Made by a program: the position numbers and the translations under genes. DNA of 38,989 nucleotides from a virus: the IMG/VR virus record IMGVR_UViG_3300033128_000043, positions 79,639 to 118,627 of that record; one strand, written 5' to 3'. Shown one piece after another: positions 2,890 to 33,113 of the stretch; within the stretch, counting starts at the first letter, position 1, and every line of letters begins with the position of its first letter. The notes under the pieces are model-generated. The model made no database searches and was not told where the DNA came from. It was given only the letters and a program-made list of their open reading frames with translations.

Positions 2890-2916
2890 AGTGGGTACAA
2901 GCTTTCATGAGTTGCA
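2890..2916 (-). promoter_or_regulatory. Putative element-specific promoter TGCAAC-N17-CACT upstream of the ligase
   Basis: One of seven copies with an exact 17-nt spacer. Confidence 0.7.
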
Positions 2917-3411
2917 TAGATTAATATTTTTCTCTTTCATTAGCTGTACTTGTTTACTGATTTTCTTCTTAGCTCGGTTCACGGTAACTTGGATGGTTCC
3001 CTTTGCTACTCCAAAAAGCTCAGCACATTTACTAAAGGACATTTCTTCAACTACAATGCACATGTAAATCTCACGCTCTCTCTTCGTTAAATGCTGCATC
3101 GCAGTTTCAATCCTATTCATATCGAAACTACTTATCTTGTACTCAACTTCCTCTATCGTAGGGGAAGCATAGAACGCTAAATTACATAAAATATCCTCGG
3201 ATATTGGTACTGTTTTTTGAGCAAGGGATCTTCGTTCTAGTGGCCTTTTTAACTCTGGCTGCCGCTTATTTTTCATCCAACTAACAGAGTACTCAAGATC
3301 GCTGATTATTCTCGAAACTGCGTTAAAGTCTCTATTGGTTGCATCCATTTGCTTATGCATCTGTTTCACGTAAGTTAGTGTGTCGGTATACTCAAGTATC
3401 AGGTCATTCAC
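2905..3411 (-). CDS. Xpf-like positive control factor (sigma-70 region 4 HTH)
   Basis: ISDLEYSVSWM..KRQPELKRPLERRS resembles PBSX Xpf; C-terminal LTKREREIY...MSFSKCAELFGVAKGTIQVTVNRAKKKI. Confidence 0.85.
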   Translation of the reverse strand: MNDLILEYTDTLTYVKQMHKQMDATNRDFNAVSRIISDLEYSVSWMKNKRQPELKRPLERRSLAQKTVPISEDILCNLAFYASPTIEEVEYKISSFDMNRIETAMQHLTKREREIYMCIVVEEMSFSKCAELFGVAKGTIQVTVNRAKKKISKQVQLMKEKNINLCNS

Positions 3412-3458
3412 TATCTACTGCGCCTCCTATAACCCCTAAAATTCACCGGTAATAAAAG

Positions 3459-3485
3459 AGTGGGAAGGCGGGCGGTACGGTTGCA
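3459..3485 (-). promoter_or_regulatory. Putative element-specific promoter TGCAAC-N17-CACT upstream of the Xpf-like gene
   Basis: Motif copy immediately after a terminator. Confidence 0.72.
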
Positions 3486-3489
3486 AAAT

Positions 3490-3516
3490 AAAAAAAAGAC
3501 AGCCGATGGCTGCCTC
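3490..3516 (-). terminator. Intrinsic terminator
   Basis: GAGGCAGC-CATCG-GCTGTCTT followed by a U tract on the minus strand. Confidence 0.7.
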
Positions 3517-3537
3517 ATCTATTTAAATTTCTTTGTT

Positions 3538-3900
3538 TCAATAGGGCACTACTTGTACCCGTAAACCCTTTTCTTTTGCTAGATCAATCATGTGCTTTGT
3601 ACCACGGCTTTTTCCATCCCAAAATGCCATTAATGCGTGAGATGTTTCAGCCATTTGCTTGTTTCGAATATATCCTGCTGACTTACCATATGTGTCCCAA
3701 TCAGCAGGATAGGCACTCACCTCAAGCCCACGCTCTTTCGCATACAACTCACCAAGAGAGTCTGCCCCTCTAGCTTTACCTGAAACTATAACTACTTCGT
3801 CTACTTGCCTATTACGGAGCACATAATCAAGGTTTGTTTTAAGCAGGACATAATCATTGAAATCCCTTCCACCAGCAACAATCACCCTCAATTTTCTCAT
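3538..3900 (-). CDS. DUF2493/YspA-like SLOG family protein
   Basis: VIVAGGRDF, IVSGKARGAD, AGYIRNKQM and AFWDGKSRGTKHMI motifs. Confidence 0.88.
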   Translation of the reverse strand: MRKLRVIVAGGRDFNDYVLLKTNLDYVLRNRQVDEVVIVSGKARGADSLGELYAKERGLEVSAYPADWDTYGKSAGYIRNKQMAETSHALMAFWDGKSRGTKHMIDLAKEKGLRVQVVPY

Positions 3901-5375
3901 TTCATGTCCTCTTCGTTAGAATCGTCTACTGTCTTTGGATTAGTAACAAGACCACCATGATAATTACCTGCGTCTAAGCGGACGTAAGCCCCGTGCCCCT
4001 TCGCTTTATACGCTCTACCTTTCTCGGCACGTTCTACTGTAAACTTGATTTCATTTCCATTAGAATCAGTACATTTAATAATGTCGCCCGCCCGCACCTC
4101 CGTAGGTTGTGGGGCATGAAGATACTCGCTAGATACCGTCATACCTAATGCCCGCCTTAAAGCAATAGCCTTACCTATATGGACATTGAAACATTCAGTA
4201 GGCATGCATTTGGCTATCCCACGAAAGGACACTCGCTTTTTCCTATCTCCCCACCTTGAAATGTAGGTAATCAAAACAGTAACCGTACGTTTATCTTTAT
4301 TAACATAAACTTCAACTGATTCCGTTGATGGACTAAAAGCTGCTACCCCACCTCCCACTGAAGGGCACCCTGGCCGATAAGTTGTACTCAGTTCCTTAAA
4401 ATCGGACTTAGCTCTTTCAACAATTTGCTCACGTTTAAGTTGAATCGGACTTCTATTCAATTTATGGGTTTCTAATTTCATAGTGACTTTACCTAAGCCA
4501 GGTGATTTTTCTTGGCTAAGATGAGTCCTTGAATCATCAATAATCCTCCCCTTTTCAGAAGCATAAGAACTCAGTGCTGCCTCGTTATTTGGGGCTGATA
4601 CATATTGGGTGTCCGGTACGATTGTCGTAACCTTTAAACCACCAAACACCCCTCTATACTCAACCACATCACCTACACGCACTTCTGTGGGGTTCGGTAC
4701 GTTTAGAAACTCGTAAGGTACTTCGAGTCCTAATGCACGTAACAATGCAATAGCCTTACCTATGTGTTCATTAAAACAATCGCCAGATGCGCATTTGGCA
4801 ATTCCTTTAGAAAGTACACCACTGTTCTGAATCGATTTACGTAAAGCAACGACGGTCCTTTTTTCGGCATTTACGATAAATTCGTGTTTGCGTGTGAAGT
4901 CTCTTCTACCCCAAGCCTCTATATCTTCCTTCGCTTTCGCTACGATCTCATCCCGCTTCTGTTGATCTGACCGAGTATCCACTTTAAAAGCAAGTCCATT
5001 AGAGCTAAACCGTCCTGTAACAGCCCCTACAGCATTGAAATCTGGGGATAGGGCCCTATTGTACAATTCTCTAATTCTACCCATAACTTGACTATTTAGA
5101 GAAATCAATGACTCTAAGTCCATATGATTCAAATCTGGTGTTGGTGTGTATTTTTGAATTATTACTTCATAATCTGCCTCCCAAATGATACCTTTATTGC
5201 TAGGTCCGAATACGCCAGAAGGGGCGATACTCTCTACAATAACAACATCTCCGTCCTTATAAGATGGGTTAGGTGTTTTGCTGTTGTTGATGATTAGAAT
5301 AAACTCACCTACATTTGCAATCCTTTTCTCAGTCTTATACTGAGTAGTCGTGTTTATATTAGCTTGTTTAGTCAT
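3897..5375 (-). CDS. Phage hypothetical protein with an internally duplicated domain
   Basis: KRTV..L...GIAKC...CFN.HIGKAIAL.RALG..V..E.L..P.PTEVR.GD occurs twice. Confidence 0.8.
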   Translation of the reverse strand: MTKQANINTTTQYKTEKRIANVGEFILIINNSKTPNPSYKDGDVVIVESIAPSGVFGPSNKGIIWEADYEVIIQKYTPTPDLNHMDLESLISLNSQVMGRIRELYNRALSPDFNAVGAVTGRFSSNGLAFKVDTRSDQQKRDEIVAKAKEDIEAWGRRDFTRKHEFIVNAEKRTVVALRKSIQNSGVLSKGIAKCASGDCFNEHIGKAIALLRALGLEVPYEFLNVPNPTEVRVGDVVEYRGVFGGLKVTTIVPDTQYVSAPNNEAALSSYASEKGRIIDDSRTHLSQEKSPGLGKVTMKLETHKLNRSPIQLKREQIVERAKSDFKELSTTYRPGCPSVGGGVAAFSPSTESVEVYVNKDKRTVTVLITYISRWGDRKKRVSFRGIAKCMPTECFNVHIGKAIALRRALGMTVSSEYLHAPQPTEVRAGDIIKCTDSNGNEIKFTVERAEKGRAYKAKGHGAYVRLDAGNYHGGLVTNPKTVDDSNEEDMK

Positions 5376-5725
5376 TACGCATTTATCCCTTCTATACGTA
5401 TTTCAAGTGCATCTAAAGTTTTTCTAATACCTGATTCAACCCCTGAGGTGTAATAGGAAATTCTACTTTCAGGAGTACTTGCTTCATGTGCGGCTACATT
5501 TTCATCGTAGTAGTCTTTTACCTTATCTAAGGATGGTTGATGACGGATCACCTCATACCCATTGATGAGTGCTGCGGCAAGTTGCATTTTAGTCAAATCA
5601 TTAAGAACATACTGCCACCTCTGAAAATTACCATGTCCATTTAAAATCTCTTCATCGTCTAAGGCATCTTCTTGGCGAAAATGCTCTATAGCTTCCGCCT
5701 GATCTTCTGTAATTTTCACTTTCAT
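5375..5725 (-). CDS. hypothetical phage protein (DUF1642-like)
   Basis: GGAGG RBS before ATG 5725; KVKITEDQAEAIE...LAAALINGYEV pattern. Confidence 0.65.
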   Translation of the reverse strand: MKVKITEDQAEAIEHFRQEDALDDEEILNGHGNFQRWQYVLNDLTKMQLAAALINGYEVIRHQPSLDKVKDYYDENVAAHEASTPESRISYYTSGVESGIRKTLDALEIRIEGINA

Positions 5726-5936
5726 TTCAATACCTCCAATAACCCTTCTATTTGATTTTTTGCAAAGTGCCTCCATTCAGGCATGCACTGATCCATAAGC
5801 TCTACATTAGAAAAAAGTAGACGAAACATCGCAGCAGTTGCAGTCTTTCGTTCAGCCTTCAATTTCTCGTTCTCAGATATGACCTCAGCCAGTGCCTGGC
5901 GTAGCTCTAGATTTTCTCTCTCTCTAGGTGTTGCAT
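5722..5936 (-). pseudogene. ~70-aa coiled-coil ORF frameshifted in a (GA)n tract
   Basis: ATG 5936 stops after 9 codons; removing one GA gives MQHLERENLELRQALAEV...LLEVLK* whose TGA overlaps the next ATG. Confidence 0.5.
5816..5842 (-). promoter_or_regulatory. Putative element-specific promoter TGCAAC-N17-TACT
   Basis: Motif copy ~90 nt upstream of ATG 5725. Confidence 0.5.
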
Positions 5937-5944
5937 AATCTAAT

Positions 5945-6727
5945 TCACTGTCCTTCCATAGAAGACACGATTTTAGACAAATCTTCGTTTATTCTTTTAA
6001 TGGCATTCCTTGTTGATGTCGGGAGGTTGCTTCTGATCAAACCTTTTACATGCTTTGGTATTTCAGATGGATTAAATACATAGATACCTAGGTTGTTTAA
6101 AAGGACTTCAACCTCTCTAGCTGCCTCCGCATCTTTTGAGAGCAATCTATTTTCCTTCTCTAATCGGTCTACTTTTTTTTGGAGACTGTCTACTTCCTTC
6201 GCCAGCTTTGTTTTAACAGCTTTGCCGAGTCCTTTATTTCCGCTTTTATTTTCAACGTACTCTTTAAAATACTCGACCTTGCTATTAAAAAAGGGATAAC
6301 TCGTACTGTCTACGCGATTCATCAGAAGGTAATAGAGCATATTTTCAGGCAGATTGATTTGCCTGAAAATAGGGGCTCTTTTTGTATATAATGTTCCTTT
6401 GTCTGGGTTGAAATAGATTAATCCCACGTTCTTTGGTAACTCATCGGGTGAGATTAATCCTTTAGGGCAGACAAATGAGAATCGATTGGTCATTTCTAAG
6501 TAAGCAGGCCATTTGGTGTCCCTTAAAAAATCATTCCTACTTACCTTAATTTCATATCCTGATATACAAGGCTTGCTCCAGCTCTTTGCTACAGCAAGTG
6601 CATCAATCACTTTTAACCCCGTCATTGTGGGTCCATTTTTAACCTCAGTTAAAAACAGGTCTAATCGATGCCGTACACTTAATGCTTTCTTAATGTCTTG
6701 GGATCGTACTTTAGGCTGCTGCGTCAT
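5945..6727 (-). CDS. MmcB-like PD-(D/E)XK endonuclease with coiled-coil C-terminus
   Basis: IDALAV...GYEIKVSRNDFLRD.KW..Y....RFSFVCP; start placed at MTQQPK rather than 6907. Confidence 0.75.
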   Translation of the reverse strand: MTQQPKVRSQDIKKALSVRHRLDLFLTEVKNGPTMTGLKVIDALAVAKSWSKPCISGYEIKVSRNDFLRDTKWPAYLEMTNRFSFVCPKGLISPDELPKNVGLIYFNPDKGTLYTKRAPIFRQINLPENMLYYLLMNRVDSTSYPFFNSKVEYFKEYVENKSGNKGLGKAVKTKLAKEVDSLQKKVDRLEKENRLLSKDAEAAREVEVLLNNLGIYVFNPSEIPKHVKGLIRSNLPTSTRNAIKRINEDLSKIVSSMEGQ

Positions 6728-9284
6728 TTGAATCATCATCCTCATCTTCTTCTTTAAACATGCCAAGCTCGTACTCATAACCAAGTTGCTTCTCCATTTT
6801 GGTTTCAACTTCCTCAGCAAATATGACTTTCCAATCCAATTCACCTGAAGCAATTTTGCCAACTTGCTCTGGTGAAAACTTTCCTCCCCAATAAGGAGAA
6901 ACTTCAATATCGGATTTAAATGTCACACCCAAATGTTCTGTTGGGATAGCATTTTGCATGACTTGAGCCAACTCTTTCAAAGCAGAGTACTCTACATTTT
7001 CTGGTATATCGAATACAAGCTCATCGTGAACTTGTAAAAGAAGATGGATGTCGTGAACCTCTAGTACTGATTTATAGTTGTTTGTTAGCCATTCGAGACG
7101 ATCAAAGCACCGCGTACCATCAGGGCGTGTTGGGTAGAAAAGATCGACCATAGCCTTTTTAACCTGGTCTGCGGAAGTCCCTTGGATACCTGTGTTAGTT
7201 GCCTGTCTTTTTACCTTTTCAAGTAAGTAATGCCAGTTGCGTTTCTTATACAAGTCTGATGATTTTGCTTCCGCAATAGTCTCACCAAACCTTCTCTTAC
7301 GTCCCAACACAGTCTCAACATAGGTGTCTTCCATTACTTTTCTATGGACCTCAGCCTCCCATGCTAGGTATCCTGGTAAGCTCGCTTTAAATGAATCTAT
7401 TAATTTCTTAGCCTCTTCTTTGGTGCCGTTTATTTGTGCAGCCAATCCAATCTCAGTGATGCCGTAAACAGTTCCGAATACCACGGACTTAGTACTTTTC
7501 CGTTTTGACTCGAACGTGGAAGCCAGCTTCGGCACCAACTCAGCTAAGTCACCCACCGCAACACCAGCTACTGTAAATGCATGGGCAATTTCAGGGGTGC
7601 CTTGCCATTTAGCCTTGATTTTTTCGATATTGTCGATAGTTTCCTTTTCGCTATCGCCTTCAAAGTTTCTAATTTGCTCAAACATGTCATAGTCAAAACC
7701 ATAAATTTGACACGTAATCCTACTGTGCATGTCCAGTCCTTTTGTATAAACCTCAAGTAGTGCAGGATCCTGAGTAAGTATCGCTAACCACCGCAACTCC
7801 TGCTGCGAGAAATCCAGAGAGGCCAATAGTCGCCCTTCGTCTGCACGGAAAGCGTACCGGATCAAATCAAATTTTGATGGTACTTGTTGAAGATTAGGCT
7901 CTTTACAGCTCATACGTCCGGTCCTAACTAATTGGTTATAGCTGCAGTGCACTTTCCCGTCCTTTGTTCCTTGTGCTTGAAGAGGTAGCTTATCGCAGAA
8001 AGCCTCAATTAACTTACTAAGTCCTCGATATTCTAGGATGTACTTAATAACGGGGTGGGTATTTTCATTCGCTTGAAGGGTTTTCTTATCAGTCTTCTTT
8101 TTAGGGACCTTCTTTTTAAGCTTTTTGTCGTACTCCATCACCTCTTCTAATATCCGATGGTCAACATAAAGCTTTTGAGCCAACTGTTTAGGTGAACTGA
8201 GTTTGAAAGGCTCTATAGCTGTGTAGGGCTCTTTATACTTTATTTTGTTCTTGGTTCTATTTTTTGTTTTTTCAAGTACAATTTCTTCACCTAAGTGAGA
8301 GTAAATCTCTTGCGTTATCTCCTGCAGTTTTTTCTTAAGTGCATCTCCTATATCTTTAGATAAGAAGTCACCATCTACTGCAATTCCCCTGCGCTCTGCA
8401 GTAGCAAGAACTGCTATTAATGGCATCTCAACTTCCCAGAAAAGTTTCTGGATACGGTCTAATTGGAATAATGGGTCGTACATAACTGATTTTTGGAACT
8501 CAAAAACTGCCTTAGTCATAAAGGTATCGTGACAAGCGTAATAAATCGCAAGTTTGTGAGGGATCTGGTCGAATGGGATTTTATCGAACATGCTACCGAA
8601 TTTAAACGTTGGTAACTTTGTTTCATCTTTGATGATTCCGCGTTTAATTAGATCAGGTAGGGCATAGCCTTTGTACCATTCTTTTAATCCTTTAAGGTGG
8701 TTTTCATTTAGCAATCCGCCAGCAATTACAGTATCCCAATGGATGTTAAATGTGATGTCTATGTTGCACCAGTTATAAAGGACATGTATATCAAATTTAC
8801 TGTTGGCCAAAACCAGCAGCTTATCTGCTTCAAAGAAAGGCTTAAGCGCTGAAACCACTTGATCCAAGGTTAATGTAGGAAGATGCTTAGACATTTCATG
8901 CTTAAATGGGCGCAGTGGAATATGGAAATGGTTATCATCCATAAATCCTAAAGAGATTGAAACGATCTCATCTTTAAATGGATTTAACCCGTATGTCTCA
9001 GTATCTAAGAATGTATAAGTCTTTGATTTGTTCCACATACGTTTATACATTTTGTAATGCTGTATAAGCTTATCCAGAAGTTCAGGCGTGTTTATTAAAC
9101 GGTAATTTTCCGGTACCTCAATGCTCTCCGCCAACTCCATTATTTGCTTTTCTTTTTTGTTAGGTCCTTTGCTGGCTTTTTTAACTTTTTCTTTTTCAAT
9201 GGTTCTTACTTCCCCTGCATCCTCTGGATGAGTCTTTAATTTATCCATTGCTTTTTCTAACTCTTTCTTAATATCCTCAGCCAT
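6711..9284 (-). CDS. Family A DNA polymerase (3'-5' exonuclease plus polymerase, no 5'-3' exonuclease)
   Basis: DTETYG exo I, KFD exo II, YACHD exo III; TGRMSCKEPNLQQVP, DFSQQELR, K...FG..YG and VHDELV motifs. Confidence 0.95.
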   Translation of the reverse strand: MAEDIKKELEKAMDKLKTHPEDAGEVRTIEKEKVKKASKGPNKKEKQIMELAESIEVPENYRLINTPELLDKLIQHYKMYKRMWNKSKTYTFLDTETYGLNPFKDEIVSISLGFMDDNHFHIPLRPFKHEMSKHLPTLTLDQVVSALKPFFEADKLLVLANSKFDIHVLYNWCNIDITFNIHWDTVIAGGLLNENHLKGLKEWYKGYALPDLIKRGIIKDETKLPTFKFGSMFDKIPFDQIPHKLAIYYACHDTFMTKAVFEFQKSVMYDPLFQLDRIQKLFWEVEMPLIAVLATAERRGIAVDGDFLSKDIGDALKKKLQEITQEIYSHLGEEIVLEKTKNRTKNKIKYKEPYTAIEPFKLSSPKQLAQKLYVDHRILEEVMEYDKKLKKKVPKKKTDKKTLQANENTHPVIKYILEYRGLSKLIEAFCDKLPLQAQGTKDGKVHCSYNQLVRTGRMSCKEPNLQQVPSKFDLIRYAFRADEGRLLASLDFSQQELRWLAILTQDPALLEVYTKGLDMHSRITCQIYGFDYDMFEQIRNFEGDSEKETIDNIEKIKAKWQGTPEIAHAFTVAGVAVGDLAELVPKLASTFESKRKSTKSVVFGTVYGITEIGLAAQINGTKEEAKKLIDSFKASLPGYLAWEAEVHRKVMEDTYVETVLGRKRRFGETIAEAKSSDLYKKRNWHYLLEKVKRQATNTGIQGTSADQVKKAMVDLFYPTRPDGTRCFDRLEWLTNNYKSVLEVHDIHLLLQVHDELVFDIPENVEYSALKELAQVMQNAIPTEHLGVTFKSDIEVSPYWGGKFSPEQVGKIASGELDWKVIFAEEVETKMEKQLGYEYELGMFKEEDEDDDSNDAAA

Positions 9285-9315
9285 GCTATTACTCCTCCCA
9301 GCTAGTATTAATCAA

Positions 9316-9341
9316 AAGAAAAGAGGCGAGAAATCGCCTCA
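9316..9341 (-). terminator. Intrinsic terminator between SSB and polA
   Basis: GAGGCGA-TTTC-TCGCCTC followed by TTTTCTTTT. Confidence 0.7.
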
Positions 9342-9350
9342 TTTAACTAA

Positions 9351-10451
9351 TTACCAAGGTAGCTTACCGGTGGGCGCATTTGCATCTCCTTGGGGCATCT
9401 GTCTGTTATCGTATTGAGTTTGCCCTTGTGCTACTGGATCTGGTTGTCCTGCATTTGGTTGAGCATCTGGTTGGTTAAAGCCAGCATTACCTTGACCAAA
9501 GTTACCTGGTGGGGATTGGTTAAATCCTTCTGCAGGCGGTTGTTGTGGTGGCGCTTGTTGCTGTTGTTGCTGAGGTGGGAAACCTCCTGGCGTTTCTTGT
9601 GGAGGAGGGAATCCTCCTGGTGCTCCTCCAAACTGTTGCTGTTGTGGTGGAGGTGGTGGAGCTCCTTGCGTACCTTGTTGTGGAGCAAATCCTCCAGGCT
9701 GTCCTCCGAATTGCTGCTGTTGTGGTGGAGGGAAGCCACCTTGTGCAGGTTGTCCGCCAAACTGTTGTTGTGGCGGGAATCCACCAGGTTGTCCACCGAA
9801 CTGCTGTTGTTGCTGCTGCGGAGGAAATCCTCCTGGTGCCCCTCCAAATTGTTGCTGAGGAGGGAAACCGCCTTGTTGTCCACCAAATTGCTGCCCTGTG
9901 CCAGGGTATGGGGGAGTAGAGTTCAATAACGCCTGCATAAAACCAGTAATTTGCTCTGGCGTATGAGGTGTGATTTGTTCCATAATGTCGGGCAATTCCA
10001 TTGCCTGCAGGTTAGGGTAATTAGGTGCTGGGTTTGCTCTGCGCGCCTGATACTGCGTATCCGAAGCCCCACTTCCAGACCTGTAAATTGTCACAAACTC
10101 CTGTCTAGGGTCTACTTGGTCAAAATTGAAGTTTTGGTTTAACGATTGAACATGTTTTTTTGACATGTTTACAAATTTGATCTTCCCATCAGCCGAATCA
10201 TAGACTCTGAACTTTGCCTTATGTGCGGGGTACCGAGTAGGATTTGCTGCGCATAACGGGCATACATCCTTACCAGGACATCTAATGTAACTTGGCTTCA
10301 GAGACTGATCATAATGCTCTCTGACAGCCATTAAACTATCTCCCCAATCAATGAACAGAAGTGTTTTAGGTGTTCCTTCTTTAAAGGTGAGGAAATCCGC
10401 ACCTCCGCCTCCTGATAGAAATGAATCTAAGCCTTGTGTTTGAGTAGACAT
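9351..10451 (-). CDS. gp32-like Zn-binding single-stranded DNA-binding protein with a Q/G/P/F-rich tail
   Basis: FLTFKEG...REHY...YIRCPGKDVCPLC...RSGSGASDTQY; located between primase/sigma and polA; ends in LPW, like an SSB tip. Confidence 0.75.
   Translation of the reverse strand: MSTQTQGLDSFLSGGGGADFLTFKEGTPKTLLFIDWGDSLMAVREHYDQSLKPSYIRCPGKDVCPLCAANPTRYPAHKAKFRVYDSADGKIKFVNMSKKHVQSLNQNFNFDQVDPRQEFVTIYRSGSGASDTQYQARRANPAPNYPNLQAMELPDIMEQITPHTPEQITGFMQALLNSTPPYPGTGQQFGGQQGGFPPQQQFGGAPGGFPPQQQQQQFGGQPGGFPPQQQFGGQPAQGGFPPPQQQQFGGQPGGFAPQQGTQGAPPPPPQQQQFGGAPGGFPPPQETPGGFPPQQQQQQAPPQQPPAEGFNQSPPGNFGQGNAGFNQPDAQPNAGQPDPVAQGQTQYDNRQMPQGDANAPTGKLPW
9530..9900 (-). repeat. Coding tandem repeats QQQFGG(Q/A)PGGFPP
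   Basis: Six QQFGG units and seven GGF(P/A)P units in the translation. Confidence 0.9.
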
Positions 10452-10502
10452 ATAACTCCTCCTAATTTCTAAAGTGCAAGATTTTGTCTCGCGTAATTAA
10501 GT

Positions 10503-10529
10503 AGTGATGCTAACTTGGGTCGGGTTGCA
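10503..10529 (-). promoter_or_regulatory. Putative element-specific promoter TGCAAC-N17-CACT upstream of SSB
   Basis: Motif copy downstream of a terminator. Confidence 0.72.
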
Positions 10530-10552
10530 AAGAATTAAAAATAAAAGTAAAT

Positions 10553-10640
10553 ACAAAAAAAAACAACCCAACACTCTGTGCAGGGTTGCAAATGTACGTA
10601 TTGTTTTGTATACTTTAGTCATTCTAAAGGAGCCTAACTA
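10553..10640 (-). ncRNA. Candidate ~85-nt small RNA
   Basis: Lies between the motif promoter at 10647-10673 and terminator CAACCC...GGGTTG-U9; contains CUCCUUU; no RBS-led ORF. Confidence 0.4.
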
Positions 10641-10646
10641 TATAAA

Positions 10647-10673
10647 AGTAGTTACGGTTAGGATATAGTTGCA
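10647..10673 (-). promoter_or_regulatory. Putative element-specific promoter TGCAAC-N17-TACT
   Basis: Motif copy with an exact 17-nt spacer. Confidence 0.62.
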
Positions 10674-10745
10674 CATTTTTAAAAAATAAATTTGCAATCT
10701 TTATTTTTGTGTTGTATACTGTACGTACAATACAATGAGATTAAA

Positions 10746-11306
10746 CTACCTGCATATACTGCGTAGTTTATTAATCGCGCGAGTGCCTGTACATTTATGT
10801 ATATTTAATTCGCGACAAATATCTGCCATATTGGTAATTACACCGCCGTCAGATATGACTGTGTCCATGAGCTGTTGTTCGTTCTCACTGAGATGTTTAC
10901 GGTATTTCTCATAGTAATCAACACAAAAATCCGTAAACACCATAGGATCCTCCTCATGAAGGTGTTCTAAAGAAAAACCGGCACTGTTTTCGTAATTATC
11001 AATAGTGACTGCCGCACTATAAAGCATTTTATGTTTCATCGTGTTTTTTCTGCGGTAATATTCAATAACACCGCGCCGAATGACAGTAATAATCACATAT
11101 TTCATTTTATCTTGTGGGACTTCATGATTCTGCAGGTATTTTAATAGACCGTAAACTATATCTTGCATTACATCTTCCTGGTCTTGTTGATTTACCTTAC
11201 TTCTTAGTTCTTTTTGAATCACTCCTTTAATGTAAGGAGTATTGAAAAAGTCCATAGAAAAATTCTCACTGTTAATCATTGCTACTGTCATTTGTATTTC
11301 CCCCAA
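10746..11306 (-). CDS. ECF-like RNA polymerase sigma factor
   Basis: Region 2 DQEDVMQDIVYGLLK...YVIITVIRRGVIEYYRR; region 4 LSENEQQLM...MADICRELNIHKCTGTRAINKLR. Confidence 0.78.
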   Translation of the reverse strand: MGEIQMTVAMINSENFSMDFFNTPYIKGVIQKELRSKVNQQDQEDVMQDIVYGLLKYLQNHEVPQDKMKYVIITVIRRGVIEYYRRKNTMKHKMLYSAAVTIDNYENSAGFSLEHLHEEDPMVFTDFCVDYYEKYRKHLSENEQQLMDTVISDGGVITNMADICRELNIHKCTGTRAINKLRSICR

Positions 11307-11308
11307 TT

Positions 11309-12400
11309 TTATATTGTTTTTGAGCCTAAAGAGCTGACAGGGTAGGAATTTAATTTATCTAGCCAGCCCAGCTTTAAAAGAAGGTTTGAATCAGCACCAG
11401 AATTGGGAGCAAATACACTAGGATACATAACGTGATTTACTACAAATCCATGCTTTATCAAATCTTTGGTTGCACGATCAGTGGCACTTTTGCCTGCAGG
11501 GTCGTCATCATACAACAGGTCCACAATTTCAATACCTGCTAATTGAAGTTCTCTTATTTGGTTTTGGAATAAAATTTTTCCATTCTGAGCTGCAGCAGGT
11601 ATGCCAACTTGGTAGTTAGACATAACATCTAGCGGCGATTCTACTAATCTAATTCGCTTTATTCGTCTACTGGTCTTTATGTTTTCGATAAAGTGCAGGC
11701 CAAATAAAATGTCTTTTTTGATAGGAGTACCTTCATTAATGAACTTTACTCCACTAAAGTCATCACCTATTTTTCTTTTCTGTATGAAGCGTAGTTCCCC
11801 CTTACGCGTACGTTGAGGGAATACGATACACTTGTTTTCAATATCGACTTTGATTCCATAAGTCTCTATGGTATGCATTGTCATACCCCTAGAGTTGATT
11901 AAATAGGACATACCTTGGCCGTATAAGTACGGATCAGGGCTATTTGTGTATTCAAATCTAGTAAGAGCCTCTTCACCTAGGCAAGGAATCTCCCCAGGAT
12001 TCCTGCCATCTTCAATAATGCTCTCTAGGTCTAGAGGCTTCCTTTGCTCCTCTGTGATAAAATTGGAGAGAAGTCTTTGAATGCCTGCGCCCTCTTCAAG
12101 ATCAAAAGCAATTTCAACTACCTTGTCTATGGTTCCTAAGTAACCACAGTAAAAGCAGTTCGCGTGATAGGGTGCCTCTTTGGATATCCCAAAAGAAGCC
12201 TTACTCTCTGAATGGTTGGGGCAACAGGACATGATCCATTCACCGGTATCATTTTGTTTTGAAAAAGCGTTTGAATTGATCCCATAGTTAGGAGAATGTT
12301 GGTACTCAAACTCCATCTCATCTAAGAAATCACCTACATCCACCCATAAGTTTTCTAGAATCTCAATGGCTCTCTGCTTATCCTCGCTCACTTTTACCAA
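11309..12400 (-). CDS. DNA primase (CHC2 zinc finger plus TOPRIM)
   Basis: CPNHSESKASF...CFYCG; IVFP; LVESPLD; YDDDPAG. Confidence 0.92.
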   Translation of the reverse strand: MVKVSEDKQRAIEILENLWVDVGDFLDEMEFEYQHSPNYGINSNAFSKQNDTGEWIMSCCPNHSESKASFGISKEAPYHANCFYCGYLGTIDKVVEIAFDLEEGAGIQRLLSNFITEEQRKPLDLESIIEDGRNPGEIPCLGEEALTRFEYTNSPDPYLYGQGMSYLINSRGMTMHTIETYGIKVDIENKCIVFPQRTRKGELRFIQKRKIGDDFSGVKFINEGTPIKKDILFGLHFIENIKTSRRIKRIRLVESPLDVMSNYQVGIPAAAQNGKILFQNQIRELQLAGIEIVDLLYDDDPAGKSATDRATKDLIKHGFVVNHVMYPSVFAPNSGADSNLLLKLGWLDKLNSYPVSSLGSKTI

Positions 12401-13689
12401 TGTTGATCACCTGCACCATTTAGAACTCCTACAACTCCCGTTTCGAATTGGTATCTTACAAGAAAATTAAGTGAGTTATCGTTTCCGCGATTCTTGATAA
12501 CTTGTATTCTGAAGGTGTTTTTGTTCACTTTTACGACAGATATGCCTTTACTTGCATCCTGGTAGATGGAGTATGTTTCCCCAATGTCTTCCCCATCAAC
12601 TGAGGAGGTTTCAATCTCTTTTTTAGCTTTCTTTGCTGCTTCCCGCGTAGCCTGTGACACTATGTAACCAGGCTTTTCTGTATCTAAAATCATTTGACGA
12701 ATTTCAGCCGATACGCTGTATAAGCGGGTACGCAGATCCATATTAGCTCCGAAAGAATTTGGCACACGTACTTTGGATACTTGGTCCAACGCAAACCTAT
12801 TGTGTCCTTCTCTCTCTAATATCCTTTTCATTTCATCTACTGTGTAGGGCTTGCCTCCATTGCTGGAAACATCATAAATCATCATGTCTTTTCTACGCTG
12901 CCTAAGTGAATCCAAGTAAAAAATATACTTATCTTTTTCCTCACCTGACATCGTTCCTCGCTGCATGGCCAAACTCGATACACGTGCTAGAACATTGTCA
13001 AAATTCCTAGCTATCTCACTCGCATGTTGCTCAAAGGCAAAGTAAGCGGGATAGTCGCTTGCGGGGGTACTCGACCAGGGGCTCTGAAACATAAACGATG
13101 TAATAAGGGTCTTACCCATGTTAGATGGAGCAAGCACTAAGAAGTAATCAGTTTCTTCCTCACCATAAACCAATCCGTTTGTAGCCTCATCTAGTGGAGC
13201 AAAGCCTGTAGAATAGCCAATAATTTGGTCCTTGTCTCTCCCATGTATACTTAAATATTTATTTTTCCTCTTTTCTGCATTTTCTGTATAGGAATAGCCT
13301 TTATTTTGCGTGCTATGGTCCTTTAAAAGTTTAGCTGTCTCATCATGAAGTTCCTGAATTGCTTCAAAGGACTGCTTGTTTCCTACCTTGGTAGCTGCGT
13401 TTTTCAGTACCGGCCGGACCATTCTGTGTAACTTATCTTCTTGAAGCGCCTTGACTACCTGCTCTACATGCTCAATCTCGACCCTTTCAAATTCTTTGTA
13501 GTTGTTCAACACAGACTCTAATGTTGGTACTTGTCCAGTATTTCGATGAAAGTCTCTAATGTACCCAAACACATGGCTATGTATAGGGAAATGTTCTTCT
13601 CCTAAACCGTAATGCTCCACTACAGTCCACTTTTTAGATTCTAATACGTAGTTGAGTAGCTGAAGTTCCTCAATACTTGGCATATTCAT
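12394..13689 (-). CDS. DnaB-like replicative helicase
   Basis: STGFAPLD, APSNMGKT, VSQATR, IYQDAS and VIKNR motifs. Confidence 0.92.
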   Translation of the reverse strand: MNMPSIEELQLLNYVLESKKWTVVEHYGLGEEHFPIHSHVFGYIRDFHRNTGQVPTLESVLNNYKEFERVEIEHVEQVVKALQEDKLHRMVRPVLKNAATKVGNKQSFEAIQELHDETAKLLKDHSTQNKGYSYTENAEKRKNKYLSIHGRDKDQIIGYSTGFAPLDEATNGLVYGEEETDYFLVLAPSNMGKTLITSFMFQSPWSSTPASDYPAYFAFEQHASEIARNFDNVLARVSSLAMQRGTMSGEEKDKYIFYLDSLRQRRKDMMIYDVSSNGGKPYTVDEMKRILEREGHNRFALDQVSKVRVPNSFGANMDLRTRLYSVSAEIRQMILDTEKPGYIVSQATREAAKKAKKEIETSSVDGEDIGETYSIYQDASKGISVVKVNKNTFRIQVIKNRGNDNSLNFLVRYQFETGVVGVLNGAGDQHW

Positions 13690-13715
13690 CTCTCCTATTC
13701 TTGATCTAAATCAAT

Positions 13716-13742
13716 AGTGAGTGAATATCTAAACAAGTTGCA
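13716..13742 (-). promoter_or_regulatory. Putative element-specific promoter TGCAAC-N17-CACT for the helicase-primase-sigma operon
   Basis: Motif copy 27 nt upstream of the helicase start. Confidence 0.72.
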
Positions 13743-13752
13743 GAATAATAAT

Positions 13753-13766
13753 AGAACGTGTGTTCT
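13753..13766. promoter_or_regulatory. LexA (DinR) SOS box
   Basis: AGAAC-GTGT-GTTCT matches the Firmicute GAAC-N4-GTTC consensus; palindrome extends to AATAGAAC/GTTCTATT. Confidence 0.8.
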
Positions 13767-13921
13767 ATTTTAGGGTAAAAAAGAAGAATATGCTTTATGT
13801 GACTGCGTAAAATAGCGTATCCGTGCATAAAAATGACGACTTATCACATAAAACATATCTTCGATATAAGGTACTAACCAAAATTAGTACTATTATCCCA
13901 GATTGTCGCTAACACAGGTTT

Positions 13922-13950
13922 ATGCTACCACAACATATTAGCGCAATCAA
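13922..13950 (-). promoter_or_regulatory. sigmaA-like promoter
   Basis: TTGATT-17-TAGCAT with TG extension. Confidence 0.5.
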
Positions 13951-14017
13951 TACTTTTTTCTCATACGCAAAATCTCATTTTTGGTATTAGATAGGACATA
14001 TTGACTGCTTGGGATTA

Positions 14018-14046
14018 ATATTACCATCCACTAAAGGTACCGTCAA
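14018..14046 (-). promoter_or_regulatory. sigmaA-like promoter
   Basis: TTGACG-17-TAATAT with TG extension. Confidence 0.6.
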
Positions 14047-14151
14047 TACTTTTATTTCATTTTCTTTACAAGGTAACATCAGGATTACTGATAACTTTAT
14101 CATCCAATGTTTCTAAAAAATACACTGCAATCGGTCAAAAACCGGTTAAAA

Positions 14152-14922
14152 TCAGACATAGTAAGTAGTTTCTTTTCTTCTATTCCTTCCTGAATATTCA
14201 AATACAAGGGAGTTAAAAAACACTCTAGTCGCTATCGTATCGCCTAGCATATCAGGATGGCCTAGTTGCCCTTCAGTAAAATTCGAGGTGAAGAAAGTCG
14301 CTTTTTTGTGCTCTTTTCTAAAGTCAATCAGATCATACGTAATGTCCCGCACGTAATTTGATAATCTTCCGCTGCCAATATCATCAAGAATTAACAAGGG
14401 TACATTTTTCATTCTTTCGAGTTCAGCAAGGGACTTAGCTGTATAGTCTAAATCGTTTAGTTGATACACCTTTCTCAGATCATTTGCCCATGTACCATAC
14501 TTAACGTACAAGGCTAAAGGGTTCTCAAAATCGAACAAATCAGCATCCATGACGGAAGAGAATATAAACTCTGCTGCCAGTGTTGTGACTGCTTTGGTTT
14601 TTCCGGTACCTTTTTCTTTAGAGATAAAACCCACATTTGTTCCAGCCATAACAGCAGTTTTAATTTCTGAAAATAGATTTTCTAGTGCAGGCTTAAATTT
14701 CATATTATCTTGATCAAACTGAAAATTGTTCTTGTTACTCTCCCTAAATTCTGGGGTAATTTTAGATAAGTTCATTGCCTGGTCAATCATTACAAACCCC
14801 GAACACTCTGGGTTTACTTTATAATCATCAGGCATTGGGGAGGCTCCTGATCTTCGAGTACACCTGTCTCTAACCAAACAACCAGCACATTCTTTGTATG
14901 GTTCTTGTTGTGGTCTAATCAT
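14152..14922 (-). CDS. DnaC/IstB-like AAA+ helicase loader
   Basis: KGTGKT Walker A, LILDDIG Walker B, FFTSN; N-terminal Cys cluster. Confidence 0.9.
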   Translation of the reverse strand: MIRPQQEPYKECAGCLVRDRCTRRSGASPMPDDYKVNPECSGFVMIDQAMNLSKITPEFRESNKNNFQFDQDNMKFKPALENLFSEIKTAVMAGTNVGFISKEKGTGKTKAVTTLAAEFIFSSVMDADLFDFENPLALYVKYGTWANDLRKVYQLNDLDYTAKSLAELERMKNVPLLILDDIGSGRLSNYVRDITYDLIDFRKEHKKATFFTSNFTEGQLGHPDMLGDTIATRVFFNSLVFEYSGRNRRKETTYYV

Positions 14923-15952
14923 TACCCTTCCCTCCCAATAATTTATTTAAGGCATCCACACCATCAACTCGTTGACGCTCTTCAGCTTCAGCTGGAATAT
15001 CCCCAAGTTTTTCAATTTCATTGTTCTTAATATGGAATGGTTTTGTCCCATTGGACAGATAGTTTTGTATCTCTCCTAACCTAGTAGTTGAACTGAAATA
15101 TTCAAGTGTGACGTTCTCATAACCTATTTCAAAGACAGCATCTATGTACTGCTTTAGGAGGTTATTGTCACTCAACATTCCAAGGACTCGGCGCATTTGG
15201 CCGGTGTGTTTCTTCATGTTGCTGTGGTGGGAAGCCTTCATGTGGTCCAAGTATTTTGAGTAGTAGTACTCCCTGAATTGTTTCACTTTCCATTTTTCAA
15301 TTGGCATCACTGACCAATGTGTTTTATCTTCATTCCCTTTTACCTGAATGTGTTCTGGGGGATTGGTAATTTTCGGGGGAACAACTGAATTTTGAATGCT
15401 TTTCGGTAACATGCCCATGTCAATCGCATCTCCTTTTAATAATTTTTCAAATATGGCGCTGTAACTTTGATGGGACCCTCTCCCAACAGCTAATGCATGT
15501 AATGGAACCTTTTGAGAGGATAAAAAATCTTTCAATTTTATAACTGCTGAATGTATATCGTCCCACCCATAAAGCGTTGTCCATTTTGCTGCTGCCGTCC
15601 AAATTTCTTCGGATACCCTTAAAAGAGGGATAGAGGATATTTCCATCAGAGAATATTGATTACTTCTTCCTCTTCCTAACCTGACACGCTTAATGAATCC
15701 CTTTTGAACTAACTCTTCAATGTGCTTTGTACAGGTGTTCTGACTAAAACCCAACGCAATTGAAAGGCGGTCGATGCTGGGGAAAGCATAATTTCCCCTA
15801 GTGTGTACGTGGTTCAGGATGGCCGCATACACTGACTTAGCGCCAGCAGATAGGCCAATACAATTCACGACTGTGCTCGGCAACTGGACAAATCCCCTGT
15901 TAAAAGAATCCCTGTAAATAAAGTGCTGCTCTTCAGGTAGTCTCATTTTCAT
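14915..15952 (-). CDS. HTH_36-type replication initiator-like protein
   Basis: LSAGAKSVYAAIL...AFPSIDRLSIALGFSQNTCTKHIEELVQKGFI...GRSNQY; upstream of the loader. Confidence 0.78.
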   Translation of the reverse strand: MKMRLPEEQHFIYRDSFNRGFVQLPSTVVNCIGLSAGAKSVYAAILNHVHTRGNYAFPSIDRLSIALGFSQNTCTKHIEELVQKGFIKRVRLGRGRSNQYSLMEISSIPLLRVSEEIWTAAAKWTTLYGWDDIHSAVIKLKDFLSSQKVPLHALAVGRGSHQSYSAIFEKLLKGDAIDMGMLPKSIQNSVVPPKITNPPEHIQVKGNEDKTHWSVMPIEKWKVKQFREYYYSKYLDHMKASHHSNMKKHTGQMRRVLGMLSDNNLLKQYIDAVFEIGYENVTLEYFSSTTRLGEIQNYLSNGTKPFHIKNNEIEKLGDIPAEAEERQRVDGVDALNKLLGGKGND

Positions 15953-15977
15953 TCATTTCATCCTCCTACAAATAAAG

Positions 15978-16004
15978 AGTAGTGAGGTGATTTTTTAAGT
16001 TGCA
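15978..16004 (-). promoter_or_regulatory. Putative element-specific promoter TGCAAC-N17-TACT upstream of the initiator
   Basis: Motif copy directly after the terminator at 16007-16034. Confidence 0.7.
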
Positions 16005-25479: not shown

Positions 25480-25734
25480 TTAGTGGTCGTTTTCACGCTT
25501 TTTTATAGATATTTCTAGTCCTAGTGCCTCCGCTAAAGCGCAGACTGTTTTAAATGTCACGTTCACCTCACCTTTGAGATATGATAGCCGTGATATTTGG
25601 TTCTGCTGTACACCTGACTTCTTTTCCAATGTGGTCTGGCTCATTGCTTGTTCAAGCCTTGCCATGCTGATCGCATCTAATATTTCATCTACTTTCTTTG
25701 AAGCAGCTTCTAGATTAATCTCTTTCTCAGTCAT
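25480..25734 (-). CDS. XRE-family HTH regulator
   Basis: ARLEQAMSQTTLEKKSGVQQNQISRL...TVCALAEALG; terminator at 25459-25481. Confidence 0.8.
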   Translation of the reverse strand: MTEKEINLEAASKKVDEILDAISMARLEQAMSQTTLEKKSGVQQNQISRLSYLKGEVNVTFKTVCALAEALGLEISIKKRENDH

Positions 25735-29157: not shown

Positions 29158-30444
29158 GTGGATTTAAAGACGTTGGAAGAAAGCTTTATAAAATCCGTTG
29201 TTCTCTATAGAACGGATTTTATGAAATTCAGGGAACTGAAAAAGTTTATAAATGTCTCATTACATGCAGGCGTTTATGACTGTTTTTGGACAGAGGAACT
29301 ATCAAAAAGGGCGAAGCTTACGCAGGCACGTAGGCAAGAGGCTTTGTACTATTATATGTTACTCAAAAATTGGCGGGCTTTGCTGGGTGGATCGGTACAC
29401 ACTAACGAAGTGCAGGTTATAAAACACCCATTAAGTGTTTCCAATAACTTTAAAGAAGTAGATTCAATTTTTAATGTGCATGAGGTTTTATCTCAATTGG
29501 ATTCACGGGAGTTTTACATGGTACGAAAAGCAAACAAGTTTGAAGGAACCTATGAAATAAGGTTACCAGCTGAAACGGGGTACACTCAATTTTTGAAAGT
29601 GTTAGTAGATGATTCTATAAGTAGTTCATTTTCGATTGAATACAGTTTAACGCCTTCTGAATGGCTTTCAGGTTACAAGGTGGATGGTAAAAGAAAAATA
29701 CGGCTTAATTCCTTTTTAAGACGTAAGGGGCATTCACAGTACGTTCTTGATTATTACAGCCTTTCTAGTAAAGACGATAAATCAAAGAGAGTTTATTTGA
29801 CTATAAGCGCCACACCTCAACACATTGCGGGAATGTCTTTTTATTCTAGTGGTGATTGGTTGACGTATAGCGGGACATCTTGCCTAGACCCCAGAAATGG
29901 TTATGATGAAGCTACTCAGCTAGTCGGTGCGCTGGCTGATGACTCTTTGTTTGTTGCCATGCTTCATGAAAAAAAGGATATATCCGATTTAAAGGGGGCA
30001 ATGAAAGCACGTACAGTGTGTAGATTGATTGATTATAACGAAAAGACTTGTTGTATTGGGTCCAAGTTATACGGATCAAAAGAAAATAAAAACTTGCTGC
30101 AAAAATGTTTAGTCGCATTAAATAGGTTTGGTGTGTTTCCTTATAGCCAAGTAAAAGGTGTAGATACTCTAGAAATTCAAGCAAGTGGACGGACTGTCTT
30201 CACCTTTAATCGTAACCCCGAAACAAGGGAATATACACAAAATGCTAATTGTTTTCGGTGTCGTGGGGAAAAATTCGTATTCCTTGATAGTGGGGAAGGT
30301 ATTAAAGATAAAGTGCCGTGCATTAGCTGTAATGATAGTATTGTCATAGAACGTACAGTCACCCCGCTTGCTGAACACTATGAACATTATGGCACTAGGG
30401 TAGAAATAAAAATAAATGAAAATATTTTAAAAGAATTATTGTAA
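29158..30444 (+). CDS. hypothetical protein with C-terminal Zn finger
   Basis: 428 aa, AAAGGGG RBS, CFRC...CISC. Confidence 0.75.
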   Translation: MDLKTLEESFIKSVVLYRTDFMKFRELKKFINVSLHAGVYDCFWTEELSKRAKLTQARRQEALYYYMLLKNWRALLGGSVHTNEVQVIKHPLSVSNNFKEVDSIFNVHEVLSQLDSREFYMVRKANKFEGTYEIRLPAETGYTQFLKVLVDDSISSSFSIEYSLTPSEWLSGYKVDGKRKIRLNSFLRRKGHSQYVLDYYSLSSKDDKSKRVYLTISATPQHIAGMSFYSSGDWLTYSGTSCLDPRNGYDEATQLVGALADDSLFVAMLHEKKDISDLKGAMKARTVCRLIDYNEKTCCIGSKLYGSKENKNLLQKCLVALNRFGVFPYSQVKGVDTLEIQASGRTVFTFNRNPETREYTQNANCFRCRGEKFVFLDSGEGIKDKVPCISCNDSIVIERTVTPLAEHYEHYGTRVEIKINENILKELL

Positions 30445-30484
30445 TTTTATATATTTATATATATAATTGTACTTAACAAGTCAT
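30437..30484 (+). promoter_or_regulatory. 48-bp sigmaA promoter cassette, copy 1
   Basis: TTGTAA-17-TATAAT; identical to 33066-33113. Confidence 0.8.
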
Positions 30485-33065: not shown

Positions 33066-33113
33066 TATTGTAATTTTATATATTTATATATATAATTGTA
33101 CTTAACAAGTCAT
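33066..33113 (+). promoter_or_regulatory. 48-bp sigmaA promoter cassette, copy 2
   Basis: Identical to 30437-30484. Confidence 0.8.

Follow-up and report, generated by a model that had tools for sequence, protein, structure and literature searches.

Two short sequence boxes, TGCAAC and YACT, recur at a fixed distance of 17 nucleotides in front of genes in a stretch of viral DNA, which raises the question of whether they form a promoter and, if so, which protein reads it. The stretch analysed here (the window) comprises the final 38,989 bases of the 118,627-bp IMG/VR virus record IMGVR_UViG_3300033128_000043 (39.8% G+C; completeness 92% by CheckV), and positions given below are those of the window unless marked as genome positions. 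The record represents a phage-plasmid of 118 kb from Bacillus pumilus, in the clade of Brevibacillus phage Jenst. A preliminary description of the window had proposed that seven copies of the motif define a regulon read by a phage sigma factor encoded at 10746-11306, here called S1. From our analysis, the motif very likely represents a class of promoters for a sigma factor that the phage itself encodes, and S1 is probably the reader.

All seven copies in the window are exact matches to TGCAAC-N17-YACT, and all lie on the minus strand, whereas shuffled sequences gave a mean of 0.20 matches (maximum 2). As had been proposed, three of them stand directly after terminators, and the labels given to the downstream genes (ligase, Xpf-like, SSB/polA, helicase-primase-sigma and initiator-loader) agree with family matches. 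The seven copies are the following.

15978-16004, minus strand: exact copy before the genes of a DnaD-like initiator (14915-15952) and a DnaC/IstB-like loader (14152-14922); terminator hairpin 16034-16012 precedes it
13716-13742, minus strand: copy before the genes of a helicase (12394-13689), a primase (11309-12400) and sigma S1 (10746-11306)
10647-10673, minus strand: exact copy before a putative non-coding RNA of about 85 nt
10503-10529, minus strand: copy after the terminator at about 10589-10554 and before the genes of an SSB-like protein (9351-10451), polA (6711-9284) and an MmcB-like nuclease (5945-6907)
5816-5842, minus strand: copy before three genes of unknown function (5375-5776, 3897-5375 and 3538-3900)
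3459-3485, minus strand: exact copy before the gene of an Xpf-like sigma factor, S2 (2905-3411); terminator hairpin 3516-3496 lies immediately upstream
2890-2916, minus strand: copy before the gene of an ATP-dependent DNA ligase (1723-2823) and genes downstream of it; overlaps the final S2 codons

The regulon is larger than it had appeared, since further sites lie outside the window. The whole genome contains 12 exact sites, two of which are on the plus strand, and a genome-wide scan for spacers of 15, 16 or 19 nt found none. K-mer statistics over the whole genome gave no useful signal. A position weight matrix built on the 12 exact sites, by which the copy before S2 scores highest of all sites, added three sites with one mismatch, with a clear gap between accepted and rejected scores (at least 19.8 versus at most 14.3). 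One further site has an 18-nt spacer (genome 3314-3341), with a terminator before it and a ribosome-binding site after it, for a total of about 16 sites. The informative columns extend the consensus to TGCAAC-N15-n-C-Y-A-C-T-n-y-T-T. TGCAAC is present in 15 of the 16 sites, the remaining one having AGCAAC, and the core spacing is GCAAC-N16-CYAC at 15 sites and N17 at one. The −10 cores are CCAC, CTAC, TCAC, CCCC and CAAC, and neither CGAC nor CGTC occurs at any site. All 16 sites, including those outside the window, point the same way as the gene that follows them, and 14 precede a ribosome-binding site and a start codon, with 5′ leaders of about 20-70 nt. The two others are the short-RNA site at 10647-10673 and a hairpin-overlapped site at genome 37617. 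The latter (genome 37617-37670, plus strand) lies between two virion-protein genes, and a G+C-rich hairpin with a T-run begins 7 nt past its YACT, so the predicted start falls inside the terminator stem; transcripts from upstream may be terminated here while new ones begin.

The genes downstream of the motif in the window encode the DnaD-like helix-turn-helix (HTH) initiator, the IstB/DnaC-like loader, a DnaB-like helicase, a Toprim primase, S1, the SSB-like protein, a family A DNA polymerase, the nuclease, S2 and the ligase. Outside the window, sites precede an operon for NrdI-like and NrdE ribonucleotide reductase proteins, a unit of Gam, a third sigma factor (S3) and MazG, a deoxynucleoside monophosphate (dNMP) kinase with a 3D-domain protein, a PAPS-reductase-like gene and a few others. 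By these annotations, the motif set marks out a regulon of DNA metabolism to which all three sigma genes of the phage belong. The idea that the copies define a regulon thus holds, though with 16 sites across the genome rather than seven. The third sigma gene and the out-of-window sites had not been noticed before, nor had the σA-like promoters and the LexA box, described below, that precede the helicase-primase-sigma operon.

A 93%-identical copy of the phage, the 116,324-bp contig MKZN01000011 of Bacillus pumilus GM3FR, allowed us to compare phage and host and to look for selection on the motif. The GM3FR assembly has 12 exact-pattern copies on the 116-kb phage contig versus 13 in the other approximately 3.4 Mb (reversed-pattern control, 8). 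At the host density, 0.45 copies would be expected on the phage contig (Poisson p for 12 copies, 9e-14). The motif is therefore phage-specific, and the host chromosome is near background, which bears out the view that it is not a host motif. We then aligned 15 orthologous sites between the two phages and counted substitutions.

TGCAAC box: 0 of 90
nYACT box: 0 of 75
16-nt spacer: 31 of 240
40 nt upstream: 50 of 600
downstream: 60 of 645

The boxes thus have no substitution in 165 positions, versus 141 in 1485 for spacers and flanks (Fisher p 1.7e-7), and both boxes are under purifying selection. Conserved boxes separated by a freely changing spacer of fixed length are what would be expected of a promoter read by a sigma factor. 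At 15978-16004, for example, the boxes are identical in GM3FR and the spacer has two substitutions.

Promoters of extracytoplasmic function (ECF, group 4) sigma factors have an AAC-containing −35 and a 16-17-nt spacer (PMC5758882). The sites described here have this type of layout, with an AAC-containing −35 and a fixed spacer, in the range of about 14-17 nt, to a short −10. The CGT or CGAC −10 of the Bacillus sigmaX/W/M/V group is absent from all 16 sites. Since ECF −10 elements are group-specific, this absence speaks against the host sigmaX, sigmaW and sigmaM factors and not against an ECF-type promoter.

Megablast of the region against GenBank phages gave no matches, and IMG/VR scans with single proteins (S1 or the helicase) recovered no relatives. 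The closest named phage is Jenst (126 kb), whose polA and helicase are 59% and 57% identical and whose gene order is conserved. An alignment-based IMG/VR scan gave 12 more loci with the order helicase-primase-S1-SSB-like, and tblastn with S1 against the PLSDB plasmids found a sixth lineage, the B. bombysepticus megaplasmid CP126592 (a B. cereus-group plasmid).

The pattern TGCAAC-N17-YACT has no matches in Jenst, which instead carries 16-18 copies of GCAAC-N17-C[GC]ACCATA before the orthologous helicase, DnaD-like, SSB-like, Gam-sigma, dNMP kinase and other genes. Similarly, the IMG/VR loci and CP126592 have promoters before the orthologous genes for the helicase, DnaD-like and SSB-like proteins; these promoters keep GCAAC and a spacer of 16-17 nt and differ in the −10. 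Orthologues of the promoter at 13716-13742, all of the GCAAC type, precede the helicase gene in Jenst, CP126592 and the relatives G005, L018 and L021, and orthologues of the promoter at 10503-10529 precede the SSB-like gene in Jenst, L018/L024 and L021. The −10 elements are as follows.

L014 group: CGACCACT
L021: CGACTACT
L018 and L024: CGAT(A)GTTAC
L022 and L023: CGACAGTATAAG
CP126592: CGAT or CGAC

The Jenst form of the motif has been described. Berg et al. 2016 (PMC4909266) found it with MEME/FIMO in Jenst and SecTim467 (19 and 20 copies) at promoter-like spacing before genes for DNA metabolism and transcription. The B. laterosporus genome yielded no copies, and these authors suggested one among three phage sigma factors as the reader. 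The window motif is thus a variant and not a new kind of promoter class, because its sister was already predicted in 2016, and the earlier statement that such a pair was not recognised as described went too far. The two sets share the GCAAC −35, a copy number of 16-20, the same kinds of downstream genes and two orthologous sigma genes, and in both a phage sigma factor is proposed as the reader on a computational basis. They differ in that the −10 here is CYACT-n-y-TT and never CGAC, whereas that of Jenst is C[GC]ACCATA-N-AT-GTG; in that the −10 core here is 1 nt nearer to GCAAC (N16-CYAC versus N17-CGAC); and in the host (Bacillus pumilus), the extra Xpf-like sigma and the lack of the sporulation-type sigma gp111 of Jenst. 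BLASTN with the Jenst promoter matches only Jenst and SecTim467, and literature searches found no experimental work on S1 or on the motif. New here are the variant with a different −10 from a phage of Bacillus pumilus, the comparison across the clade, the test for selection on the boxes and the argument for a reader sigma.

Bacillus phage Basilisk, in which the Jenst motif was stated to be prevalent (PMC4909266), was examined as a carrier and rejected, as it has no GCAAC-N16-18-CNAC sites at promoter positions and no matches to S1, S3 or gp111 homologues. In Jenst itself, the annotated open reading frame gp047 (25561-25707, 48 aa) is probably not a real gene, because it overlies the helicase GCAAC promoter and a LexA box.

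Which of the phage sigma factors could read the motif? Two of the three are encoded in the window.

10746-11306, minus strand: S1, 186 aa, with a predicted two-domain ECF-like build
2905-3411, minus strand: S2, an Xpf-type ‘positive control’ sigma of 168 aa (Sigma70_r4_2, E 4e-11; phrog_1190, E 1e-34)

S3 lies outside the window, adjoining Gam, and is a protein of 320 aa with regions 2-3. It is evenly conserved (45-48% identity) and always behind a copy of the motif, and it would fit a later sigma. S2 is 30-38% identical to the Xpf-type family and is found only in the window phage and GM3FR, being absent from Jenst, G001 and G005. Since gp111 of Jenst is unrelated to S2, S1 and S3 are the only sigma factors common to the clade that has this promoter layout.

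S1 matches phrog_1740, a sigma factor family (E 2e-9), some members of its family, which comprises about 34 clusters, have a precomputed PF04542 match, and a profile of the S1 orthologue alignment finds sigma-H (3mzy) in the PDB (E 4e-6). In a Foldseek search with its AlphaFold2 model, which has two helical bundles and a disordered linker, the top matches are nearly all sigma factors, mostly of the ECF group (M. tuberculosis SigH and SigL, E. coli sigmaE, SigW and SigK). A syntenic S1 orthologue follows the primase gene in every relative examined. Its ubiquity in relatives favours S1 as the candidate reader, while S2 is missing from Jenst, G001 and G005, and the use by Jenst of CCAC as well as CGAC in its −10, without any S2, also counts for S1.

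The pattern of divergence points in the same direction. S1 is only 22-29% identical among relatives (35% for the S1 relative P0031), compared with 50-59% for the primase, helicase and SSB-like proteins. Six of the 13 invariant columns of its alignment lie in the last 20 residues, in a C-terminal HTH of the form LGLxKSxxxRAxxKLxxxC. This conserved HTH would match the invariant GCAAC, and the divergent remainder the drifting −10. Against the GM3FR phage, S1 is 89% identical, S2 93% and S3 96%, so that S1 changes fastest, and the promoter boxes are all unchanged. In this phage and its relatives, the motif stands upstream of helicase-primase-S1, which by sequence has the layout of an autoregulated operon. 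No obvious anti-sigma candidate adjoins S1, although no systematic search was made.

The region in front of this operon suggests how S1 could first be made. Between the loader and helicase genes lies a non-coding leader of about 400 nt (13743-14151) that is 96% identical to GM3FR, compared with 93% genome-wide, and that may hold the replication origin. Three features were recognised in it.

14018-14046, minus strand: σA-like promoter P1, TTGACG-N17-TAATAT with a TG extension; boxes unchanged and four spacer changes relative to GM3FR
13922-13950, minus strand: σA-like promoter P2, TTGATT-N17-TAGCAT with a TG extension; boxes unchanged and two spacer changes relative to GM3FR
13754-13765, no strand assigned: predicted LexA (Cheo) box GAACACACGTTC, 11 nt upstream of the TGCAAC of helicase-primase-S1; conserved in GM3FR

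At the position equivalent to P1, Jenst has a similar TTGACGG...TGGTAATAT. LexA boxes are found at the equivalent place in Jenst (105677), G005 (125653) and CP126592 (three to four copies); overall, a box lies there in four or five divergent elements. Among the sigma genes, only the S1 operon has σA-like promoters; S2 and S3 are preceded by a terminator or terminator-like hairpin and the motif only. The presence of σA-like promoters and a LexA box before the S1 operon supports a scheme in which S1 would be made first under SOS control and would then amplify itself. While the phage is carried, host LexA bound to 13754-13765 would block the two σA-type promoters (14046-13922) that face helicase-primase-S1. 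Upon DNA damage, these promoters would yield the first S1, whose region 4 would read GCAAC and whose region 2 would read CYACT. S1 would then amplify its own operon and turn on the DNA-metabolism regulon, including S2 and S3, both of which would serve later transcription.

Several observations weigh against this assignment and this scheme. Transcription starts, their timing and the sigma dependence of the sites are all things that we infer. Because S1 itself lies downstream of the motif, positive autoregulation must be assumed. The matches of S1 to known families include weak ones: Pfam Sigma70_r2 is found with E 3e-4 and 21 bits versus a cut-off of 24, the AlphaFold2 model has a low predicted local distance difference test (pLDDT) score of 63, and the Foldseek E-values are 2e-3 or weaker, with template modelling (TM) scores of about 0.3. 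Genome-wide, GAAC-N4-GTTC is not enriched (2 found versus 1.75 expected), and for this reason only the position of the LexA box is used as evidence. Finally, the CYACT −10 (never CGAC) is specific to the lineage that specifically gained S2, and Xpf-type late promoters resemble part of the motif.

The last two points lead to the explanation that S2, and not S1, reads the motif in this lineage, at all or a subset of the sites, with S1 supplying the first S2 or reading something else. S2 is a confident member of a sigma family, and the window phage and GM3FR, to which it is confined, are the sole lineage with a CYACT −10. The sequence GCCACCTATA...TAGAAGG, which lies beside the Xpf-type genes of five phages (PBP180, AP45, phi4J1, Abouo and PG1), resembles the −10 and downstream part of the motif as seen in TCCACTACTTATAGG, GCCACTACTTATTG and CCCCCTATTTAA here, and the intergenic regions of the genome show no convincing separate class of canonical Xpf-type promoters. 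The likeness is loose, however, and is confined to the −10 side. The five Xpf-type promoters have no conserved −35 and no GCAAC (Abouo has a terminator T-tract at that place), whereas TGCAAC is invariant here and the spacing of the clade is kept. Moreover, relatives without S2 share the promoter layout, including CCAC variants of the −10, and S2 cannot start its own expression, because only a strong terminator and the motif precede it. We consider S2 an unlikely reader, though it is the main rival of S1 and could read some or all of the sites. Since GCCACCTATA...TAGAAGG resembles the −10 side of the motif both here and in Jenst, S1-type and Xpf-type sigma factors may recognise related −10 regions.

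A host ECF sigma factor could alternatively read the motif, for example a B. pumilus homologue of sigmaX, sigmaM or sigmaV that responds to envelope stress or infection, while the phage sigma factors serve other promoters. The GCAAC −35 and 16-17-nt spacer are indeed close to Bacillus ECF promoters, and the Jenst-type GCAAC-N17-CGAC is much like a sigmaX site, TGTAAC-N17-CGAC. An ‘AAC’/‘CGT’ rule is described for such promoters, with a −35 of GCAAAC for sigmaV (GCAAAC...CGTC) and a −10 of CGAC for the autoregulatory sigmaX promoter (PMC5758882). Yet the CGT or CGAC that sigmaX, sigmaW and sigmaM reportedly need occurs at no site here (16 examined), the motif is near background in the host chromosome, the Jenst motif was not found in the B. 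laterosporus genome (PMC4909266), and the −10 varies among the phages in step with the divergence of S1. A host reader therefore seems improbable.

Slightly less probable still is that TGCAAC is the site of a phage activator, comparable to T4 MotA, with host σA starting from an A/T-rich, TTATAG-like stretch past YACT. TTATAG, TTAAT or TATATA is found 2-8 nt past YACT at many sites, and the Ts at +2 and +3 past YACT have no substitutions relative to GM3FR. However, the A/T-rich stretch varies in position and does not match TATAAT consistently, TGCAAC would lie 23 nt from it, the strictly conserved CYACT would be left without a role, and the phage encodes three sigma factors of its own. A non-promoter protein-binding repeat, for instance for replication, partition or packaging, is very improbable given that all sites are oriented with genes, most of them 20-70 nt before a ribosome-binding site and start codon, that they occur on both strands and several directly after terminators, and that they have two boxes and a free spacer of fixed length.

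The proposed S1 system can be compared with known ones. Like the ECF promoters of B. subtilis, it has an AAC-containing −35, a 16-17-nt spacer, a short C-rich −10, near-consensus sites and an autoregulated sigma operon. Unlike them, its −10 has no CG, and its sigma is phage-encoded, about 25% identical to the closest phage orthologues and below the Pfam cut-off; the proposed control is by LexA and σA promoters and not by regulated anti-sigma proteolysis. In the sigma cascade of phage SPO1, gp28 serves middle genes and gp33/34 late genes (cited in PMC4909266 and PMC13401047). The proposed order here is similar, from host σA to a phage sigma and on to replication genes and the next sigma gene or genes. 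No detectable homology to SPO1 was established, the promoters differ (SPO1 middle promoters are AGGAGA/TTTNTTT), and the element is temperate, plasmid-like and apparently SOS-gated. The Xpf-type systems of PBSX-like and other temperate Bacillus-group phages have in common a CCAC(C/T)...TATA...AGG core similar to the −10 side of the motif; in contrast, their promoters have no GCAAC −35, drive terminase and late operons instead of replication genes and occur in one or two copies per phage, versus about 16 here.

Sites at genome 32078, 39381 and 49489 (plus strand) and 68382 (minus strand), outside the window, may represent a third class of promoter, c-Y-TATAATG, in which a −35 is not evident. 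These sites often follow hairpins and precede virion and other genes, and similar sites occur in Jenst, G001 and G005. S3 or S2 could read them as late promoters. Substitution patterns are uninformative for this class, because the flanks are likewise unchanged relative to GM3FR, and a further candidate at genome 10472 was rejected as unconserved.

The copy of the motif at 10647-10673 has no open reading frame or ribosome-binding site downstream. It is followed by one further feature of the window.

10555-10640, minus strand: putative short RNA with predicted ends; terminator at about 10589-10554

This RNA, located between S1 and the SSB-like gene, would be about 85 nt long and is predicted to form a hairpin at its 5′ end and to finish in an intrinsic terminator (fold z −2.7). 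Its first approximately 70 nt have one substitution relative to GM3FR. An Rfam search with it found no family above threshold and only a sub-threshold chance match. At the equivalent position between S1 and the SSB-like gene, L022 and L023 have a promoter followed by a large hairpin.

Elsewhere in the window, two identical copies of a block of about 50 nt lie on the plus strand (30439-30467 and 33068-33096), 2.6 kb apart and each before a gene; the block carries a σA-like promoter, TTGTAA-N17-TATAAT, within an alternating TA run. Because the IMG/VR record is circularly permuted relative to the GM3FR contig, the end of the window does not mark a true genome end. The final bases of the window (genome 116578-118627) and the start of the genome are separated by about 195 bp when mapped to the GM3FR contig (window 38290-38989, genome 1-2081). 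As both ends map so closely in GM3FR, the flagellin-like gene at the end of the window lies inside the element and not at a host junction.

Our findings involve no new principle, as both ECF promoters and the sigma cascades of phages are familiar. If S1 reads the motif, it would form with it a compact sigma/promoter pair distinct from those of the host, with about 16 natural promoter variants and with relatives that have the same −35 and different −10 elements. Such a pair would be useful for studying how small sigma factors choose a −10, and as a source of orthogonal parts for gene circuits in Bacillus. We tentatively extend this idea to the phage-plasmids of Bacillus, Brevibacillus and Paenibacillus, in which it is quite possible, if short of probable, that a LexA-gated, self-amplifying ECF-like sigma encoded behind helicase-primase is the master switch of lytic replication, with the reading of GCAAC kept while the −10 specificity drifted (CGAC, CGAT, CGACAGTATAAG and CYACT). 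If true, the clade would offer a natural set of kindred sigma/promoter pairs, perhaps orthogonal to one another, and an SOS-gated, positive-feedback sigma would stand atop the lytic programme of these little-studied 115-135-kb phage-plasmids.

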